This document shows, piece after piece, positions 25,709 to 32,906 of a stretch of 64,000 bases of DNA. Under the pieces are notes generated by a model. It was not told the DNA's origin and searched no databases. It saw nothing but the letters and a program-made list of their open reading frames with translations. Position numbers and translations under genes: made by a program. This DNA comes from Vulcanimicrobiota bacterium (lineage in GTDB: Bacteria; Vulcanimicrobiota; Xenobia; Xenobiales; JADMJV01): contig JBFWNU010000007.1 of assembly GCA_050250895.1 (NCBI GenBank), forward strand, positions 64,001 to 128,000. Reading direction: 5' to 3'. Position 1 is the first letter of the stretch, and every line of letters begins with the position of its first letter.

Positions 25709-26389
25709 GCGGACGGGGGTGTAAACTGGAGTTTTCACGCGGACGTGGGCGTGAACTGGATTTTAACGCGGAGATCAAGGAGAGGACGCAGAGATCGCGG
25801 AGGGGTTGCAGGTTTGGGGGAGTAGGCTCTCTAGCGATTTTTATGGTTGAGGCCGGTGCGGCTGGAAGGTCGTTCCCTGATAGTTCCAGGCGCGGCCGGT
25901 GCCGAAGGACTCTGCGTTCTCCGCGATCTCAGCGGTTTATAAACGGGCGGGCGTGTTAACGCGGACGTGGGCGCGAACTGGATTTTGACGCGGAGATCAA
26001 GAGAGGACGCAGAGATCGTGGAGGGGTTGCAGGTTTGGGGGAGTAGGCTCTCTAGTGATTTTTATGGTTGAGGCCGGTGCGGCTGGGAGTTAGCGGTGCC
26101 TGACCCGCGTCGGTTACCGACCGGGACCGAGGCGCGGCTTGGCCCAGCCAGAGGCGGGCCACTTCCAGCTGGAAGTCGCGGCGGGTGTGCGGCGCACAAC
26201 CGGTCCCACGGTCGCCGCTGGCCCGAACCGAGGCCTCGGCCGGGGATTCGGCAGCACCCACGTACCACGCCGCCAAATCGGCCTCGGCGGGGCGGGGAGG
26301 TCGTTCCACCGTTGTTCAAGGCTTCAATGCGCGGCCGGCGCGCGCCGAAGGACTCCGCGTCTCTGAGCGGTTTTATAACGAGCGAGCGC
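25709..26389. repeat. Tandem copies of a ~220-bp non-coding repeat with internal inverted repeats
   Basis: Partial head at 25709-25740; copy 1 at 25737-25958; copy 2 at 25959-26389 with a ~205-bp insert after 26086. Shared core GCAGGTTTGGGGGAGTAGGCTCTCTAGYGATTTTTATGGT. Inverted repeat GAGATCGCGGAG (25791) / CTCCGCGATCTC (25919). Confidence 0.85.
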
Positions 26390-26405
26390 TCACCCTCCAG
26401 ACCAC

Positions 26406-26434
26406 TTGACATCCCCGGCCGTGTCCACTATTAT
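26406..26434 (+). promoter_or_regulatory. sigma70 promoter for tRNA-Ala
   Basis: TTGACA, 17 bp spacer, TATTAT, ending 10 nt before the tRNA. Confidence 0.8.
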
Positions 26435-26444
26435 TGCTGGGCGC

Positions 26445-26520
<76 letters not shown>

Positions 26521-26530
26521 AAATCAAACG

Positions 26531-26562
26531 AAGACAGGAGCAAACAGCTCCTGTTTTCATTT
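26531..26562 (+). terminator. Rho-independent terminator after tRNA-Ala
   Basis: ACAGGAGC-AAACA-GCTCCTGT followed by TTTCATTT. Confidence 0.7.
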
Positions 26563-26750
26563 CGTTCGATGTTTTTCCGGGCGCGTGGAGGAACTCTAGT
26601 ATTCTGGAAGAATACTCAAGCGTTATTTCCGAGGGTTTCCCTTGGAGTCGGAGTGGTGCTCCGGCAATGCGGCCCTCGCTGCAGAACTCGTTCGGGTGTG
26701 ATGTGGGCGCGACTAGAAAAGAATTATAAAGACTACGGGTAGGTGACTTT

Positions 26751-27044
26751 ATGGCATACCGGCCGTGCAGGTTTCGGAGTTCGGTGCTAGGCGTTTTTCA
26801 GTGCGAGAAGCACATGTTTCAGCATTCCTATCCGGAAATCTACAACGAACTCTACGAGTTTTGTCTTGAGAACGTTCCCGATCGATTTTGCGGATATGTC
26901 GATTTCGGTTTCAGTCTCGAAGGCGAGATGCCTAGAATTTTTATCAATTGTACGCATCCCTACCAGTCCCGTCCGCTGCGCAGTTTTCGGGACTGCATCG
27001 AGGAGTGCGATTACCACGATAAAGAGGGCGAGTCCCTCGGTTAG
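26751..27044 (+). CDS. Small Cys-rich protein (97 aa, 7 Cys), putative partner or substrate of the radical SAM enzyme
   Basis: AGGTGA RBS, protein-like composition, Cys at 6/18/38/47/67/82/86, 58 bp upstream of the rSAM gene. Confidence 0.7.
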   Translation: MAYRPCRFRSSVLGVFQCEKHMFQHSYPEIYNELYEFCLENVPDRFCGYVDFGFSLEGEMPRIFINCTHPYQSRPLRSFRDCIEECDYHDKEGESLG

Positions 27045-27102
27045 GCGCCTCACACACAGCGCCGCTACGGTCGGCGGTACTCAGACCCCTGGAGGAATCT
27101 GA

Positions 27103-28392
27103 ATGGCGGACGCGGCCAAGGCCCCTTTTGTGGGCCGTCGGGAATATTTCGGCTGTTTGATCTATGATCGGTCGAATAGCGATTATATTCCCTTCGATCA
27201 AGAGGCCACTGAAATCTTCGAGTTGAGCGTGGACCGCTCGCTCGATGAGGTCTATCGAGAACTGTCTGACTCGGTCACGCGCCAGTCTTTCGACACGTTC
27301 GTTCAGCTCTGCTCGAGCATCGGGCTGTTCGAGAACGGCACCTTCAAAGGCGTTTTTCTAGAAGACAAGACCCCGGCCGGCTTTTACCATCTCTCGGCAC
27401 CGACGCTGGTTTATCTTCAATTGACCCGCTACTGCAACCTGGCCTGTAAGCACTGCTGGGCCGAGGCTGGGGCGGCCCGCCCGCGCGAATTGACGATTCT
27501 CGAAGTTCGCAAACTGCTCGACCAGATGTCCGAGATGGGTGTCTATAAATTGCGTCTCGGTGGGGGAGAGCCCCTGGGCCGCGGCGACTGGTATGATATC
27601 GTCAAATACGCCAACGACCGTGGCATTCGAGCCAGCCTCTCCACCAACGCCACTATGGCTACCCGGGCTGTGGCCTCCAAAATTGGCGAGCTCGACATCG
27701 ACGAGATCAAGGTCAGTCTCGAGGCGGCCAGCGAGAAGAGCTACGACTATATCCGGGGCGAGCGATCCTATCGCAAGGCCATCCGCGGCATCAAGAACCT
27801 CAAAGAGCTGGCCAACGCTCCGGTCTATTTCCATACCGTTTTGCAGCGCGACAACCTGACCGAGATCCCGGCTCTGGTCAAGCAGGCCGAGAAGCATCAG
27901 GTCGATCGCATCGTTTTCGATGTCATCGTCGGGTCGGGGCGCGCCCGCGAAAACCAACGATTGCTGTTGACTCCAGAAGAGGCCAACAATGCCCTGGATC
28001 TGGCTCGCCGGATCGGTCAGACCAGCCGGGTCAAAGTCGAGGTGGCCAATCGGGTCCCGCCGCCCTATCAGAAGAAGCGAGTTTTCGAAGGCTTCGGCTC
28101 CGAAGGTGGACGACTGCATCTGCACGTCAACTCGGAAGGTGTGGTATCGGCCAGCGGTTTCGTGAGCGAGCTGCTGCCGGCGGGCAACATTCGTGACAAG
28201 TCTCTGCGCGAGATCTGGGAAGAAGGCCCCGGCTTCAAGAGCTTGCGAAGCAGCCCCGGCAACCAGGTCTGCAACAACTGCGATTACTTCCGCTCTTGCC
28301 GCGGTGGGTCGCGCTCGCGGACTTATGCTACTCTCGGGTCGCTAACCGAGCCCGATCCGATGTGCCTGGTGGCCAAAGAGGCTGTTCGTTGA
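27103..28392 (+). CDS. Radical SAM/SPASM-domain protein with N-terminal RRE(PqqD/MftB)-like domain
   Basis: C111xxxC115xxC118, 'GGEP', 'STN'; C-terminal CxxCx5C...DPMC; N-terminal 'RREYFGCLIYD...' followed by helices; GGAGG RBS. Confidence 0.9.
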   Translation: MADAAKAPFVGRREYFGCLIYDRSNSDYIPFDQEATEIFELSVDRSLDEVYRELSDSVTRQSFDTFVQLCSSIGLFENGTFKGVFLEDKTPAGFYHLSAPTLVYLQLTRYCNLACKHCWAEAGAARPRELTILEVRKLLDQMSEMGVYKLRLGGGEPLGRGDWYDIVKYANDRGIRASLSTNATMATRAVASKIGELDIDEIKVSLEAASEKSYDYIRGERSYRKAIRGIKNLKELANAPVYFHTVLQRDNLTEIPALVKQAEKHQVDRIVFDVIVGSGRARENQRLLLTPEEANNALDLARRIGQTSRVKVEVANRVPPPYQKKRVFEGFGSEGGRLHLHVNSEGVVSASGFVSELLPAGNIRDKSLREIWEEGPGFKSLRSSPGNQVCNNCDYFRSCRGGSRSRTYATLGSLTEPDPMCLVAKEAVR

Positions 28393-28586
28393 GCGAGTCG
28401 TCATTTTCTCTGACGCCGCGCGAAGAGGCCAGGCTTACGCTGCCGAACTGCCCCGGTTGCGATACGCCTCTCGAGGTGGCGGGGTTGGGTCTCAACGAAG
28501 AGACCACCTGTCCCCACTGCGGAGTCGTGATTTTGTTGGTTCGCATCGATGGGGTGCGAATGTTTCTGCGCGACGGCTGGACTTGA
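28389..28586 (+). CDS. Small zinc-ribbon protein (LysW-like CPxC...CPHC)
   Basis: TTG start overlaps the rSAM TGA (TTGA); 65 aa with 'CPGCDTPLEV...EETTCPHCG'. Confidence 0.65.
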   Translation: MSESSFSLTPREEARLTLPNCPGCDTPLEVAGLGLNEETTCPHCGVVILLVRIDGVRMFLRDGWT

Positions 28587-28688
28587 GCGGGCCGCCGATT
28601 CGAGGGTAAGCTCCCGGGCGTGTCGAAAATCTTTGATGGGGGCGCCGTTTGGCTTTGCCAGCGGCTTTGATGGAGTGAACCTGGCTGG

Positions 28689-30650
28689 ATGTTGGCAGCG
28701 CGCTGGTTGATCTACCTGGGAGGAGGGGTTATCGCCCTCCTCTACAGCTATTTCTCCGGCGGCACGGTGATCACCACCTCCATCTATCGACTGTTGTTCG
28801 TGTTGGCCTCGACCCTTGCCTATCTGAGCTATGTCTCTTACTTCGGCCAGGGCCGGCTACCTTTGCCCATGCGATTGGGTTTGATTTTTTGCGAGGTGGC
28901 TCTGGTGAGCCTGCTGGTGGCGCTTACCGGCGGCCTGGCCAGCCCGTTTGTCTCGCTGTTGTGGTTGCTGGTGATTCTCAATTCCGTCGATCATGGCGAG
29001 CAGCTCGGAGTGGCGGCCGCTTTGTTATGCTGTCTGGGACTGGGGGCCATGGCCCGCGGGATGGGAGTCTACTCTCCCTCGCAACTGGGCGGATTATGGT
29101 TGGGACTGGTCGCCATGGGAGCCCTGGGCTTTGTGCTCGGCGGTCGGCAAAGCGGCGGCGAAGCCAGCTACGGCGGTGATGCCAGTCGCGAGATCGACCG
29201 GGCCCACCGCATCGCTCGCCAGCAGTCACGCGAGCGTAAGGTTCGCGAAGAGCAGCTGTACTACGAGCGACGACGATTCGAGGGCCTGGTCGAGGTGGCT
29301 AATAGCCTGGCCAGTCTGCGCACCCGCGACGAGTTGCTCAGCCAGATTGTCGAGCGCGCGCTCGAGCAGATGGAAGTCGAGGCTTCGGCGGTGTTGCTGC
29401 TCGACGAAGAGAACCACCTGGTCGTCAGCGAGGCGCGGGGGGTCAGTATTCCCACCCGCCAGCGCCTGGAGGGCCCCGTGGGGGAATGTTTCCTCGGGCG
29501 AGTGCTTCAGACCGGAGACATCCTGACGTTCGACGAGAGCCAGACTCACGAGGTGCTGCATCACTATGGTGAACTGGGCGCCTTCTCCGAGGTGGTGCGT
29601 GGCTCGCACCAGGCCCTCAATCAGGGTTTCACCAATCGGGGCGAGACTTTTCGCAACTTCATCGTGGTGCCGCTCTTTACGTCTCAGGACCGCTTTTCGT
29701 TTGGTTTGCTCTTTGTGGCCAATCTGCGCTCGCGTGACTGTTACTCTTCCAATGATGTCGGCTACCTCCGGATTTTGGCCACCAACGCCGCCATCGCGCT
29801 GCGCAATCTCGAGGCCAAATCGCGCATTGAGCAGACGCACTTTGAGATGATCCAGGCCCTGGCCCAGGCCATCGAAGCCAAGGACCTTTACACCAGCAAC
29901 CACGTCGGACGCGTGCGTGATCTTTCGGTTCGCATCGCCGAGGTGATGGGATTGGCCCGGGAAGAGGTGCGCGAGATCGGGATCGCGGCCACCCTCCATG
30001 ATGTTGGCAAGATCTCGACCCCCGATCGCATTCTCTCTAAACCTGGGGCGCTCGATGCCGAGGAATACGAGACGATGAAGGCTCACGCCGAGAACGGAGC
30101 CAACATTCTCAAGAACATCAAGAGCCTGCCCCCGTCCGTCCATCGTATGGTGCTGCACCACCACGAGCGTTGGGACGGCAAAGGTTATCCTCGCGGCCTG
30201 GTCGGCGACCAGATCCCCCTGGGAGCCCAGATCATCTCGGTGGCTGACTGCTACGACGCCATGACCTGGGACCGTCCGTATCGCCGAGGCTTCTCCAAGG
30301 AGGAGGCTCTCAAGCGCATGGAACATGGCTGCGGCACCCAGTTCAACTCGAAGATCCTGTGTGCTTTCTTTGCGATGTGTGGCTATCAGCCACGTCACTC
30401 TCCCGAGGCGGTTGCTTCCTTCGCCCAGACGAGCCAATCGTTGCAATTGGAGCGGCCGCCCACGTTCAGTTTTGCCACAATGTCCGAGGTTCCCGAAATC
30501 GGGGTTTATCCTGGATTTCAGGAAGGTGGCACGCCGGCCGCCTCGGCCGGGCGCGCAAATGCGGGCTCGACGAAGGAAAAGCGCCGGGTTCTTCAAATCG
30601 AAACCAAAAAGCCCTCGGTCCTACATATCGAACCCGACAAGGAGTCTTGA
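28689..30650 (+). CDS. Membrane-bound GAF + HD-GYP domain phosphodiesterase
   Basis: About 5 N-terminal TMs, GAF domain, 'KD.YT..H..RV', 'LHDVGK', 'HHERWDGKGYP', 'VADCYDAMT..RPYR'. Confidence 0.92.
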   Translation: MLAARWLIYLGGGVIALLYSYFSGGTVITTSIYRLLFVLASTLAYLSYVSYFGQGRLPLPMRLGLIFCEVALVSLLVALTGGLASPFVSLLWLLVILNSVDHGEQLGVAAALLCCLGLGAMARGMGVYSPSQLGGLWLGLVAMGALGFVLGGRQSGGEASYGGDASREIDRAHRIARQQSRERKVREEQLYYERRRFEGLVEVANSLASLRTRDELLSQIVERALEQMEVEASAVLLLDEENHLVVSEARGVSIPTRQRLEGPVGECFLGRVLQTGDILTFDESQTHEVLHHYGELGAFSEVVRGSHQALNQGFTNRGETFRNFIVVPLFTSQDRFSFGLLFVANLRSRDCYSSNDVGYLRILATNAAIALRNLEAKSRIEQTHFEMIQALAQAIEAKDLYTSNHVGRVRDLSVRIAEVMGLAREEVREIGIAATLHDVGKISTPDRILSKPGALDAEEYETMKAHAENGANILKNIKSLPPSVHRMVLHHHERWDGKGYPRGLVGDQIPLGAQIISVADCYDAMTWDRPYRRGFSKEEALKRMEHGCGTQFNSKILCAFFAMCGYQPRHSPEAVASFAQTSQSLQLERPPTFSFATMSEVPEIGVYPGFQEGGTPAASAGRANAGSTKEKRRVLQIETKKPSVLHIEPDKES

Positions 30651-30652
30651 AC

Positions 30653-31630
30653 GTGAGTTTCGAGCAGAACATACCAGACCAGCTTCTCCAGGCCCTTCGC
30701 GCTAGTCGAAGGGTATTGCTGGCTGCCCACATTGGTCTCGACGGTGACCATCTCGGCTCGATGCTCGCCCTTCGTAAGGCGCTCGAGATCCTGGGGAAAG
30801 AAGTGGTGGCCTATCTGCCCGAAACGGTCCCGCCCAACTATCATTTCTTGCTCGACCTCGACAAGCTTTCGCCAGAATTGCCCGGCCACGACTTCGATAC
30901 CATCATTACCCTCGAGTGCCCTAACGTAGCCCGACTGCCGGCCGGGGTCGAGGTCAAGTCGACCCCCGCCACCGTGATCAATCTCGATCATCATCCCGAC
31001 AACGAGATGTATGGTCAGCACATCTGGGTCGAGCCCCAGGCGGCTGCTCTAGGCGAGATGATTTGCGACCTCATCGAAAGACTCGACGTGCCGCTGGATC
31101 GGGCGATGGCTATGGGCCTCTATGTGGCCATTCTGACCGATACAGGCTCGTTTCAATACTCGCGAGTGCGCCCGGCCACCCATCGCCGGCTGGCTCGTTT
31201 GCTCGAGTTCAATTTGCCAACCGATCTGATCGCTCGTTCGATCTACCGTCAAAGCCGGCCCGAAGTGCTCAAGTTGCTCGGGCATGTGCTCACCGACGTA
31301 AGCGTTACCGACAACGGCCAGGTTGCCTGGGCCGAGATCCCTTTCGAGCGGATGCAATCGTATGGGGTCCGGCCCGAAGATACACAGTTTTTCATCGATG
31401 ATGTGGATCGGGTGGCCGGTCCCGAGGTGGTCACGCTCTTTCGCGAACTCGGCGACGGGCGCATCAAGGTCAGTCTTCGTTCCAAGGACGCGCCGATCAA
31501 CGCCGTGGCGGCCAAGTTCGGCGGGGGAGGGCACGCCAAAGCCGCCGGTTGCGTGGTCAAAGGCGACTTGAGCGAAGTGCGGGCCATGGTGGTGGAGGCG
31601 GTCACCGAAAGTCTGCGGGTAAATGCCTGA
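30653..31630 (+). CDS. nrnA: DHH-family phosphoesterase (NrnA-like nanoRNase/PAP phosphatase)
   Basis: 'H...DGD..GS', 'NLDHH', 'TDTGSF', DHHA1 'GGGGHAKAAG'; AAGGAG 8 nt before GTG 30653. Confidence 0.88.
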   Translation: MSFEQNIPDQLLQALRASRRVLLAAHIGLDGDHLGSMLALRKALEILGKEVVAYLPETVPPNYHFLLDLDKLSPELPGHDFDTIITLECPNVARLPAGVEVKSTPATVINLDHHPDNEMYGQHIWVEPQAAALGEMICDLIERLDVPLDRAMAMGLYVAILTDTGSFQYSRVRPATHRRLARLLEFNLPTDLIARSIYRQSRPEVLKLLGHVLTDVSVTDNGQVAWAEIPFERMQSYGVRPEDTQFFIDDVDRVAGPEVVTLFRELGDGRIKVSLRSKDAPINAVAAKFGGGGHAKAAGCVVKGDLSEVRAMVVEAVTESLRVNA

Positions 31631-32906
31631 GAACCCTACGTTCGCCATTCATACCCTCGGTTGCCGCGCCAATCAGGCCGAGTCCGAGCGAATGCGCGAT
31701 ATCCTCGTCTCGGCCGGCTTTGCCGAGGTAGCCTTCGGGCAACCTGCCGACTGCCAGGTGGTCAATACCTGCACCGTTACCCGCGAAGCCGACCGCAAGT
31801 CGCGCCAGATGATCCGTCGGGCTCTGCGGTTAAGCCCGACCGTAGTGGCCACTGGTTGTGCCGTGGCCGACCGGGGCGGAGTCAAGAATCTGCCGGGCAC
31901 GGCCCTGCGCTTGCCCCCGGAGCGGACCGAAGAGTTGTTGAGCTTGCTCGGTGCCGAGCGTTGTCCGGCCACCGAACTCGTCGAGAGAGAGACGCTGGCG
32001 ACACGCACCAGGGCGCTGTTGAAGGTGCAGGATGGCTGCGACCAGTTTTGCAGTTTCTGTATCGTGCCGTACGTGCGGGGCCGCAGTCGCAGCCGGCCGG
32101 TGGCCGAAGTGGTGGAAGAGGCTCGGCGTCTCGAGCAGCAGGGTTATCAAGAGATCGTGCTGACCGGCATTCATCTCTCCATCTGGGGCCACGACCTGGA
32201 GGGCGCGCCGGACCTGGCCGACCTGGTCGAGGCCATTTTGACCGCCACCGAGAGGCCTCGCATTCGCTTGAGCTCGGTCGAGCCCGATCGCTTCCCGGCT
32301 CGGATATTCGAGTTGATGACCCAGGCCTCGGGCCGCCTTTGCCCCCATCTGCATCTGGTGCTTCAGCACGCCAGTGACGTCGTGCTCGAGCGCATGCGAA
32401 GAGGCTACACGCTGGCCCACTACCGGGGCCTGGTAGACGAGTTTTTCCAGCGCGTGCCCGACGCCTGCCTGACCACCGACCTGATGGTGGGCTTTCCCGG
32501 CGAGACCGACCAGGACTTCGCCTGCCTGATGGATTACGTGCGCCAAACACCCTTTTATCGCGTGCACGTATTCCCTTACAGCCTGAGACCGGGGACGACC
32601 GCCTCGAAGTTTTCCGACCAGGTGGAACCGGCCGTCAAGAACCATCGGCGCGATCGCTTGCTGCGTCTGGTCGAGAAAAAACGCGTCGAATTCTTGCGCG
32701 CTAACTATGGACGCACGGCTCGAGTGCTGGTGGAAACGGTCGAGCGGCCAGGTTGGGTGAAGGGTGTGAGCCACAACTATCTCAACGTGGCTTTTCGGGG
32801 CGGGCCGCGGCTGCTGGGTCGGACTCTCGACGTTCGCCTGGAACGGCGCCGTAAAGACCTTCTGGTGGGCAGCCTGGTGGGGGAGGACTTCCCGCGCCCC
32901 CATTGA
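31623..32906 (+). CDS. mtaB: tRNA t6A37 methylthiotransferase MtaB
   Basis: 'TLGCRANQAE', 'NTCTVT..AD.KSR', 'KVQDGCDQFCSFC', 'LTGIHL', 'HVFPYS.RPGT', C-terminal TRAM domain. Confidence 0.9.
   Translation: MPENPTFAIHTLGCRANQAESERMRDILVSAGFAEVAFGQPADCQVVNTCTVTREADRKSRQMIRRALRLSPTVVATGCAVADRGGVKNLPGTALRLPPERTEELLSLLGAERCPATELVERETLATRTRALLKVQDGCDQFCSFCIVPYVRGRSRSRPVAEVVEEARRLEQQGYQEIVLTGIHLSIWGHDLEGAPDLADLVEAILTATERPRIRLSSVEPDRFPARIFELMTQASGRLCPHLHLVLQHASDVVLERMRRGYTLAHYRGLVDEFFQRVPDACLTTDLMVGFPGETDQDFACLMDYVRQTPFYRVHVFPYSLRPGTTASKFSDQVEPAVKNHRRDRLLRLVEKKRVEFLRANYGRTARVLVETVERPGWVKGVSHNYLNVAFRGGPRLLGRTLDVRLERRRKDLLVGSLVGEDFPRPH

Follow-up and report, generated by a model that had tools for sequence, protein, structure and literature searches.

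To our knowledge, few radical S-adenosylmethionine (SAM) enzymes with a SPASM domain act on whole proteins, known examples being QhpD, anSME and the recently reported CrpC. QhpD crosslinks cysteines of QhpC, a subunit of ∼80-110 amino acids that then works as a folded protein; QhpC is encoded in the qhp operon together with dehydrogenase subunits, and its quinone cofactor needs a tryptophan. In the MftC/MftB/MftA and PqqE/PqqD/PqqA systems, a PqqD-type domain holds a ribosomal precursor with a highly conserved core. PMC13692751 describes CrpC of Methanococcus voltae, a radical SAM/SPASM enzyme with a recognition element (RRE) of the kind found in pathways for peptides that are made on the ribosome and modified after translation (RiPPs), as placing thioether crosslinks in the adjacent cysteine-rich protein CrpA, its demonstrated substrate. 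According to the same paper, CrpA is a 28.8-kDa protein with a leader-like N-terminus and a 17-residue cysteine motif repeated ten times, substrates of the Crp type carry repeated C-x-x-Q/D motifs after such an N-terminus, and CrpC, of family TIGR04463, requires its auxiliary cluster I. We analyzed a locus of three genes, A, B and C, in a 64,000-nucleotide stretch (the window) of a Vulcanimicrobiota genome (assembly GCA_050250895.1, contig JBFWNU010000007.1, positions 64,001 to 128,000 of the forward strand), where a small cysteine-rich protein precedes a radical SAM/SPASM protein. Tentatively, we favor the explanation that A works with B as a conserved functional pair and is the client, and probably the substrate, of B.

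The three genes of the locus are as follows:
26751..27044, + strand: gene A, a Cys/His-rich protein of 97 residues with seven cysteines, ATG start
27103..28392, + strand: gene B, a radical SAM/SPASM protein of 429 residues with an extra N-terminal domain, ATG start
28389..28586, + strand: gene C, a C4 zinc ribbon (CPGC...CPHC) of 65 residues, TTG start

A gap of 58 bp separates A from B. C lies in the frame of the open reading frame (ORF) at 28296..28586, and its TTG start at 28389 overlaps the TGA stop of B at 28390-28392 ('TTGA'). The ORF coordinates bear out a preliminary description of the window, which had reported three co-oriented genes with this gap and this overlap after a tRNA-Ala and its terminator. 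It had also reported that no mftA/pqqA-like peptide, peptidase or exporter is adjacent, and the neighboring genes agree: among the adjoining genes we found no peptidase or protease, no exporter and no short precursor ORF resembling mftA or pqqA.

Gene A encodes a cytoplasmic protein with seven invariant cysteines and one to three conserved histidines. Over 64 sequences, residues R4, P5, C6, R9, G14, F16, Q17, C18, E19, Y31, C38, P43, C47, F52, G53, C67, H69, C82 and C86 are invariant, and H21 and H25 are nearly so; the best-conserved part is the first 25 residues (YRPCxFRxSxxGxFQCEKHxFxH). Scanning a single genome of each species with a sequence pattern recovered 79 A loci. The 58 distinct homologues they encode are 94-101 residues long, and every full-length A within the order of the window has exactly 97 residues. 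The protein contains no tryptophan and no internal repeat. A is 87-100% identical in relatives where the identity of B is only 29-85%, and it outdoes even ribosomal protein L1 in conservation: between the source genome (G000) and G025, identity is 91% for A, 60% for L1 and 29% for B. Comparison with the sister genome (G001) finds 54 synonymous and 0 nonsynonymous codon changes in A, and comparison with other relatives 39-57 synonymous and 2-13 nonsynonymous changes. This preponderance of synonymous changes indicates that A is conserved at the level of the protein and not of the DNA.

Within searches of Pfam (best E 0.21), NCBIfam (no match), the PDB (profile search, best E 0.36) and the ESM Atlas (no usable match), A has neither a recognized family nor a recognized fold. 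Among 1.84 billion representatives, eight matched A at E<=0.001, mostly truncated members of the family itself, and a search for fused or longer forms found none, which is weak evidence. An AlphaFold2 model built from 18 sequences was unusable (pLDDT 49). The model built from 64 sequences has a mean pLDDT of 67, rising to 73-84 over residues 30-95 and dropping below 50 over residues 1-25, and the most conserved segment of the protein is thereby predicted to be unstructured. With the latter model, Foldseek retrieved nothing from the PDB at E<=0.001, and the highest Z that VIA-align reached over 48,161 chains was 2.8, which assigns no fold and does not by itself prove a novel one. A probably binds a metal or an iron-sulfur (Fe-S) cluster. 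One of the eight matches among the representatives is P0135, a repetitive protein of 301 residues in which the A profile matches three stretches (E 1.7e-9) and a short cysteine-containing unit is seemingly repeated.

The arrangement of A and B is conserved among relatives. At 33 of the 79 A loci, B lies directly 3' of A and co-oriented, with gaps of 27-264 nt between the tblastn alignments of the two genes. All 33 loci come from the taxonomic order of the window; they represent three of its families, and the identity of B among them goes down to 29%. Approached from the other gene, 28 loci around B homologues (27 relatives and the source genome) carry a full-length A directly upstream in 24 cases; one locus is cut by the end of a contig, and in three A was not found. 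C follows B in 20 of the 33 A-B loci. An arrangement in which A and B adjoin in 33 of 79 loci and C follows in 20 of these 33 is far beyond chance, and the cassette seen in the preliminary description is conserved.

Co-occurrence was assessed in 401 genomes of the phylum, with B orthologues called at E<=1e-45. A is present in 63 genomes and a B orthologue in 63: both genes occur in 61, A only in two, B only in two (G011 and G051, both 75% complete) and neither in 336. Outside the order of the window, a B homologue at E<=1e-30 was found in 26 of the 27 A-positive genomes checked, and in the genomes compared it is located on a different contig from A. In 24 cases the homologue aligns over almost the whole B query, starting from residues 2-9 and including the N-terminal domain; the homologue of G055 is divided between the ends of two contigs, and in G045 only the core is matched, without the N-terminal domain. 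In 14 A-lacking genomes (families f15 and f20), the best radical SAM matches have E >= 7.6e-39 and start at B residues 86-103, which indicates that these matches do not have the N-terminal domain of B. The independent cases are more telling than the bulk of the co-occurrence. G033, which is 96% complete, has neither A nor B, and its genus mates have both; at the other extreme, genomes of 1.4-1.6 Mb keep A together with a full-length B homologue.

The domains and motifs of B are positioned as follows:
27103..27390, + strand: residues 1-96 of B, PqqD/RRE-like domain
27433..27456, + strand: CxxxCxxC radical SAM cluster motif (C111, C115, C118), intact in the window
28111..28284, + strand: Pfam SPASM match of B, residues 337-394

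B contains APTLVYLQLTRYCNLACKHC and matches the radical SAM family PF04055 (1.3e-24; 87.7 bits against a cut-off of 29.5) and the SPASM domain PF13186 (5.6e-6; 27 bits against 21.5; residues 337-394). The best 25 of its 78 NCBIfam matches all fall far below their cut-offs. TIGR04053 scores 169.4 bits against 395, over residues 99-313 only, and MftC (TIGR03962) 167.2 bits against 265, with no mftA- or mftB-like ORF nearby; PqqE (TIGR02109) scores 123.8 bits against 381.35. The heme enzymes AhbC, AhbD, NirJ, NirJ1 and NirJ2 give 131-155 bits against cut-offs of 500-650 (AhbD 155 and NirJ2 149, each against 500), so that B is not a member of the Ahb/NirJ group, an assignment the preliminary description had named as a possibility. 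Judged from these profile scores, B belongs to no characterized family. The likeness to the MftC/PqqE group seen in the preliminary description holds in the sense that B is a radical SAM/SPASM protein of the PqqE/MftC/Ahb-NirJ neighborhood lying below all curated cut-offs. Its closest solved relative is PqqE (PDB 6c8v, E 1.6e-20), followed by SkfB, whose alignment extends into the N-terminal domain of B from residue 17.

The N-terminal domain of B carries the motif F-V-G-R-x-E-Y-F-G-x-L-x-Y-D-x4-D-Y-I-P-F-D, and ten of the 33 invariant columns of B fall within it. In homologues from genomes of 1.4-1.6 Mb that are 28-32% identical to B overall, the motif persists as F-[IV]-G-R-x-E-[YH]-F-G-S-L...[DE]-Y-I-P-x-D. 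An hhalign comparison of the domain with 16 genuine PqqD domains from the source genome and its relatives gave a moderate match (probability 67%, E 5.1e-5), aligning columns 19-76 to columns 11-75 of 78. A profile search of PDB sequences with the domain returned no RRE. That the domain is an RRE is plausible from the hhalign alignment.

Taken as a client of B, A would be gripped by the PqqD-like N-terminal domain, and we infer that the grip is probably on the invariant residues 1-25. Where all clusters are intact, B would modify A by a radical mechanism, most likely through C-H chemistry or a crosslink within the molecule, located at an invariant cysteine of A or close to one, by analogy with QhpD-QhpC and with CrpC-CrpA. 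The reading is supported by the linkage of the two genes, their co-occurrence, their retention in small genomes, the constraint on A, the PqqD-like domain of B, and the first 25 residues of a paralog, A2, which are identical to those of A. The Crp precedent (PMC13692751) counts by analogy in favor of A as the substrate of B. Predictions of a B-A complex gave scores of 0.01, 0.39 and 0.01 against a mark of 0.32 and were used neither for nor against binding.

Several observations weigh against A being the client of B. At 46 of the 79 A loci, no B was found within up to 5 kb on each side, although a few of these loci have less than 600 bp of sequence downstream. The unlinked loci are of two kinds, a second paralog in families with large genomes and a single copy in other classes. 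The source genome itself carries such a paralog, A2 (G000:C1:1457297-1457590), which is 86% identical to A and lies far from B. Two nearly complete genomes, G045 (98%) and G062 (94%), have A without a B orthologue. Most of the co-occurrence signal reflects a single deep split: 332 of the 336 genomes with neither gene fall in families f15 (0 of 297 positive), f20 (0 of 30) and f21 (0 of 5), and related genomes are not independent. As to the N-terminal domain, the Pfam PqqD model PF05402 matches none of 31 diverse B N-terminal domains at E<=10, and a six-frame PqqD scan of the source genome finds ten other PqqD domains, that of B not among them. Of the resemblance to PqqD/MftB RREs noted in the preliminary description, the likeness over nearly the whole PqqD profile stands by hhalign, and a match to the Pfam model does not. 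In addition, a precursor more conserved than its maturase is atypical of RiPP systems. The state of the cysteine ligands of B, given further below, adds to these points.

A role for A as a RiPP-style precursor was considered and rejected: A is a protein of fixed length (97 residues), more conserved than L1, with a paralog away from B, and is mostly unlinked. The preliminary proposal of a system acting on a flanking small protein is supported insofar as adjacency and co-occurrence tie A to the enzyme, and needs the qualification that A is not a precursor of the RiPP kind.

Where A occurs without an adjacent B, its surroundings vary with the lineage. The single copies in other classes are found in housekeeping settings, for example FtsH-HPRT-(NIF3)-CdsZ-like zinc ribbon-A-(FAD protein)-PurA and Der-FlgG-like protein-A-unknown-DUF3084-RuvX. 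A2, within the region G000:C1:1456332-1458942 (locus L110), lies 11 bp after an unknown ORF of 317 residues and precedes a PAS histidine kinase gene, with flhA/flhB/fliR/fliQ adjoining on the other strand; a comparable unknown ORF of 306-365 residues lies 5' of A2 in other relatives with large genomes. A flagellar role for A was considered from the FlgG-like rod protein, the CdsZ/HP0958-like zinc ribbon and the flh/fli genes beside A2, and was left unproven, since the neighbors vary by lineage; the pair of zinc ribbon and NIF3 is also common in bacteria without flagella. The records bearing A are labeled Vulcanimicrobiota/Eremiobacterota, Xenobia, 'Bruticola' and 'Calescibacterium', along with various evidently loose labels of metagenome-assembled genomes. 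In one of them (L107:810-3278), the FtsH homologue 5' of A has an intein-splicing domain in its AAA module (PF14890, 2.6e-13).

Housekeeping neighbors such as FtsH, HPRT, the CdsZ-like zinc ribbon and PurA raise the question of whether A and B are functionally linked at all. A could be an independent housekeeping gene that shares the distribution of B through common descent, and two further facts fit this: the co-occurrence is mostly one clade-level split, and an unrelated small cysteine protein, V, occurs in 60 of the 401 genomes, with a clade distribution nearly matching that of A and B, which cautions against reading too much into co-occurrence. We nevertheless consider the absence of any link very improbable, because the tight, co-oriented adjacency is kept while B falls to 29% identity, because G033 lacks A and B together and yet retains V, and because both genes are retained in genomes of 1.4 Mb.

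The iron-sulfur sites of B bear more directly on what B does to A. The GGEP motif is invariant in B orthologues, and the CxxxCxxC motif together with Cys 390, 393, 399 and 421 is nearly universal in the family; C390 and C393 lie inside the SPASM match, C399 and C421 just beyond it, and all four are kept in the window. The canonical SPASM pattern, known from solved SPASM enzymes, comprises 7-8 cysteines. Further cysteines at positions 333, 335 or 340, and 403 (333 and 403 just outside the SPASM match, 340 inside it) are kept in families f2 and f3 and in other classes. We take these to be the ligands of auxiliary cluster I, and the four retained cysteines to be those of auxiliary cluster II. The B of the window has S, G, L and S at positions 333, 335, 340 and 403: three SPASM cysteines conserved in the family are gone, and the full cysteine set for two auxiliary clusters is absent. 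The loss extends throughout f1, the family of the window: Ser or Ala stands at 333 and Ser or Asp at 403, and no fewer than two of the three cysteines are missing.

The radical SAM site itself is altered in a sister clade. Its first two cysteines are replaced (S/N and Q/H) in 7 of 65 aligned B clusters and at locus L050, whose genome holds no other B orthologue. These variants are of full length and 73-90% identical to each other, comprise at least two sequence types, keep GGEP and stand between an unchanged A and C. In that lineage, B therefore has a selected role independent of SAM cleavage, and A does without radical chemistry by B. Together, the lost SPASM and CxxxCxxC cysteines mean that radical chemistry on A is not to be taken for granted. 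The B of the window keeps CxxxCxxC and is 85% identical to that of the sister genome, and the synonymous sites of the adjacent A are saturated.

Such losses fit an alternative in which B is mainly a non-catalytic partner of A, a chaperone, assembly factor or stable subunit, that would hold or load A through its N-terminal domain and the retained four-cysteine auxiliary site, radical chemistry being ancestral and dispensable or vestigial in f1. It is favored by the divergence of the full-length variants without the radical SAM cysteines beside A and C with no intact paralog there, by the loss across f1 of the cysteines assigned to auxiliary cluster I, and by the N-terminal domain, which in homologues as low as 28-32% in overall identity is still conserved better than the rest of B; NCBIfam also has a family named 'pseudo-SAM/SPASM' (TIGR04347). 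In the window and most lineages, however, there is strict conservation of CxxxCxxC, of GGEP and of the remaining four SPASM cysteines, which argues for a working cluster site, and we regard a mainly non-catalytic B as unlikely, if a substantial rival. If A is the client of B, the family of the source genome, which has lost the cysteines of auxiliary cluster I, may have an altered or reduced chemistry, with B perhaps acting there partly as a binding or assembly partner.

Two small genes accompany B or its relatives outside the window. V (G000:C1:3471723-3472046; L153:5724-6047) encodes 107 residues with four cysteines and the motif YCENIIxC...CRYSGISPLYPDP. Of 13 genomes examined, 8 have V directly after a cysteine desulfurase gene, an IscA/HesB-like gene often being close by; in f14 and f19, V directly follows B. 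It may be an Fe-S-related helper. U is a conserved ORF of 97-101 residues found directly 5' of unlinked B in three loci of f14 and f19 (L114:4526-4819; L115:6426-6719, minus strand; L116:4458-4763). Its product starts with MDSIxG... and ends in ...KE[FL][FLW][YW][LM]x[IM], has no match in Pfam or NCBIfam and was not found in the source genome. U could be another client of B in these two families.

The presence of U upstream and the four-cysteine V downstream of B in f14 and f19, together with the position of V after cysteine desulfurase elsewhere, is compatible with A being a dedicated electron donor, cluster carrier or scaffold, the substrate of B then lying elsewhere, for instance a small molecule such as a tetrapyrrole-like cofactor, or a peptide such as U. 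The seven invariant cysteines and the histidine of A would suit a carrier; A is also found without an adjacent B, and the best curated matches of B include, alongside peptide maturases, the enzymes of heme and heme d1 (AhbD, NirJ), all below cut-offs. On the other hand, it would be odd for an electron donor to be far more conserved than its enzyme, the PqqD-like domain suggests that the ligand is a peptide or a protein, no U was found in the source genome, and no small-molecule pathway genes are linked to B. We therefore see a carrier role for A as quite unlikely.

Gene C is restricted to the part of the order with larger genomes and to one other lineage. By tblastn, it was not found after B in 13 of the 33 A-B loci, among them L035, where the contig breaks off; nor was it found next to B at the 12 unlinked B loci that were examined. 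Its tail is conserved as LLLV[RK][IL]DG[VI]xM[FL][LF]R[DE]GW[TV], and the C-termini of the aligned homologues read RDGW[T/V/L/A/S]. An ESM Atlas search with C returned only generic zinc-ribbon clusters. The preliminary description had called C LysW-like. Both are small C4 zinc ribbons with similar knuckle spacing, but C scores 12.6 bits against the LysW family (TIGR01206; cut-off 53.2), in a weak alignment over residues 20-57. LysW has an acidic tail ending in a carrier glutamate, whereas C ends in RDGW[T/V] (RDGWT in the window) and no lysine or arginine biosynthesis genes are adjacent; C is thus not a LysW. C is a generic C4 zinc ribbon and an accessory of a sub-clade. It is translationally coupled to B and might provide a rubredoxin-like electron or metal site.

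The overlap of the C start with the B stop, and the conservation of the tail and of both CxxC knuckles in the 20 loci that have C, could also be taken to mean that C and not A is the target, with B modifying the conserved tail of C (…LRDGWT). This is very improbable: by the tblastn comparison above, B persists at loci without C, so C is not the general substrate of B.

A broader reading builds on the pairing of A with B. It is possible, if doubtful, that A is a hitherto unrecognized, near-invariant protein cofactor or metalloprotein, core to bacteria of the Xenobia type and other deep Eremiobacterota and kept even in genomes of 1.4 Mb, that is matured or loaded by a dedicated RRE-bearing radical SAM protein seen at stages from enzyme to pseudoenzyme. 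All clusters would be intact in some lineages, auxiliary cluster I would be lost in the source genome, and the radical SAM cluster would be lost in the sister clade. If this is true, the lineages form a natural series from which one could read the steps that a protein-directed radical SAM system can do without.

Further features of the region and its flanks are:
26406-26434, 5' of the tRNA-Ala gene: TTGACA-17-TATTAT
26445..26520, + strand: tRNA-Ala(GGC), by ARAGORN and Rfam RF00005 (65.2 bits)
26530..26558, + strand: terminator-like hairpin 3' of tRNA-Ala, with a 12-pair stem and a T-rich tail
26590..26616, + strand: candidate promoter/operator of A, GGAACT-N~14-AAGAATAC, noticed by eye in f1 and f2 relatives
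28689..30650, + strand: gene D, a membrane protein with GAF and HD-GYP (HD_5) domains, a syntenic neighbor and at most a possible member of the system

The same tRNA is visible 5' of A in many relatives and serves as a marker of the context; the terminator-like hairpin probably sets its transcript apart from the A-B-C cassette. In the window, the motif at 26590-26616 contains the palindrome AGTATTC-N5-GAATACT, and GGAACT-N~14-AAGAATA recurs 5' of A in f1 and f2 relatives. Exact-match metatranscriptome contigs cover 26640-26850 and 26644-26880 (two runs of one study). They hint that the 5' region of A is transcribed, being silent on level and strand and coming from RNA libraries that may contain DNA; that both start ∼25 nt 3' of the motif is likewise only a weak hint. 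Rfam found nothing but the tRNA over 26300-28900, and the RNA structure of the A-B gap is not unusual (z-score 0.41).

A gene for a permease of the Na/sulfate-symporter family lies 5' of the tRNA gene. The non-coding stretch of ∼750 bp between the two holds, at 25728-26089, two copies of a ∼140-nt direct repeat that are 90-97% identical and 221-222 nt apart from start to start. On the 3' side of the cassette, 28689-32906 encodes the GAF+HD-GYP membrane protein D, a DHH/DHHA1 (NrnA-like) protein and a radical SAM protein of the MiaB/MtaB type. The first two together resemble a pair for the degradation of c-di-GMP. A homologue of D lies 3' of the pair in 27 of the 33 A-B loci and in none of those of family f2.

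A is among the most constrained proteins of its lineage, in an uncultured phylum. Learning which ligand A has, and whether it is modified by B, could uncover a metal site or protein-derived cofactor of a new kind, and could explain a core function of these bacteria. It could also give a natural test of the contributions of the auxiliary clusters and of the RRE-like domain, since the loss of clusters is graded. Screens based on adjacency alone would miss most members of the pair, the two genes being linked in one order only. In the literature on radical SAM/SPASM proteins in Eremiobacterota or Xenobia and on TIGR04053 we found no description of the pair, and the available portion of the supplementary text of PMC13692751 contains no mention of Eremiobacter, Vulcanimicrobiota, Xenobia or Armatimonad.

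Compared with the systems introduced above, the pair is similar in outline to CrpC/CrpA: in both, a radical SAM/SPASM enzyme with an extra N-terminal domain, an RRE in CrpC and RRE-like in B, is encoded next to a cysteine-rich protein and not a short peptide, without a protease or exporter. A differs from CrpA in having 97 residues, no repeats and an almost invariant sequence throughout, and the B of the window differs from CrpC in lacking cysteines that would match auxiliary cluster I. The CrpC family TIGR04463 is not among the best 25 of the 78 NCBIfam matches of B, and its score is hence at most 55.6 bits. QhpD/QhpC shares with the pair a radical SAM/SPASM enzyme and a small protein, but no dehydrogenase subunit genes lie near A or B, and A has no tryptophan. 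MftC and PqqE are among the closest curated or solved relatives of the B core (167 and 124 bits; 6c8v). Their systems differ in that the RRE-like domain is fused to B, the partner is a protein of 97 residues instead of a peptide of 20-30, no downstream pathway genes are linked, and the scores stay below 265 and 381 bits. AhbC, AhbD, NirJ and TIGR04053 share the radical SAM/SPASM core (131-169 bits), their cut-offs of 395-650 bits being far from reached. From RiPP cassettes in general, the pair is set apart by the absence of a variable core and of an adjacent protease or exporter, and by the unlinked position of A in 46 of the 79 loci. In kind, A-B resembles the protein-directed radical SAM/SPASM systems already known; what is unusual is an ultra-conserved partner of fixed length with its own paralog, its mostly unlinked range, and a natural series from enzyme to pseudoenzyme.

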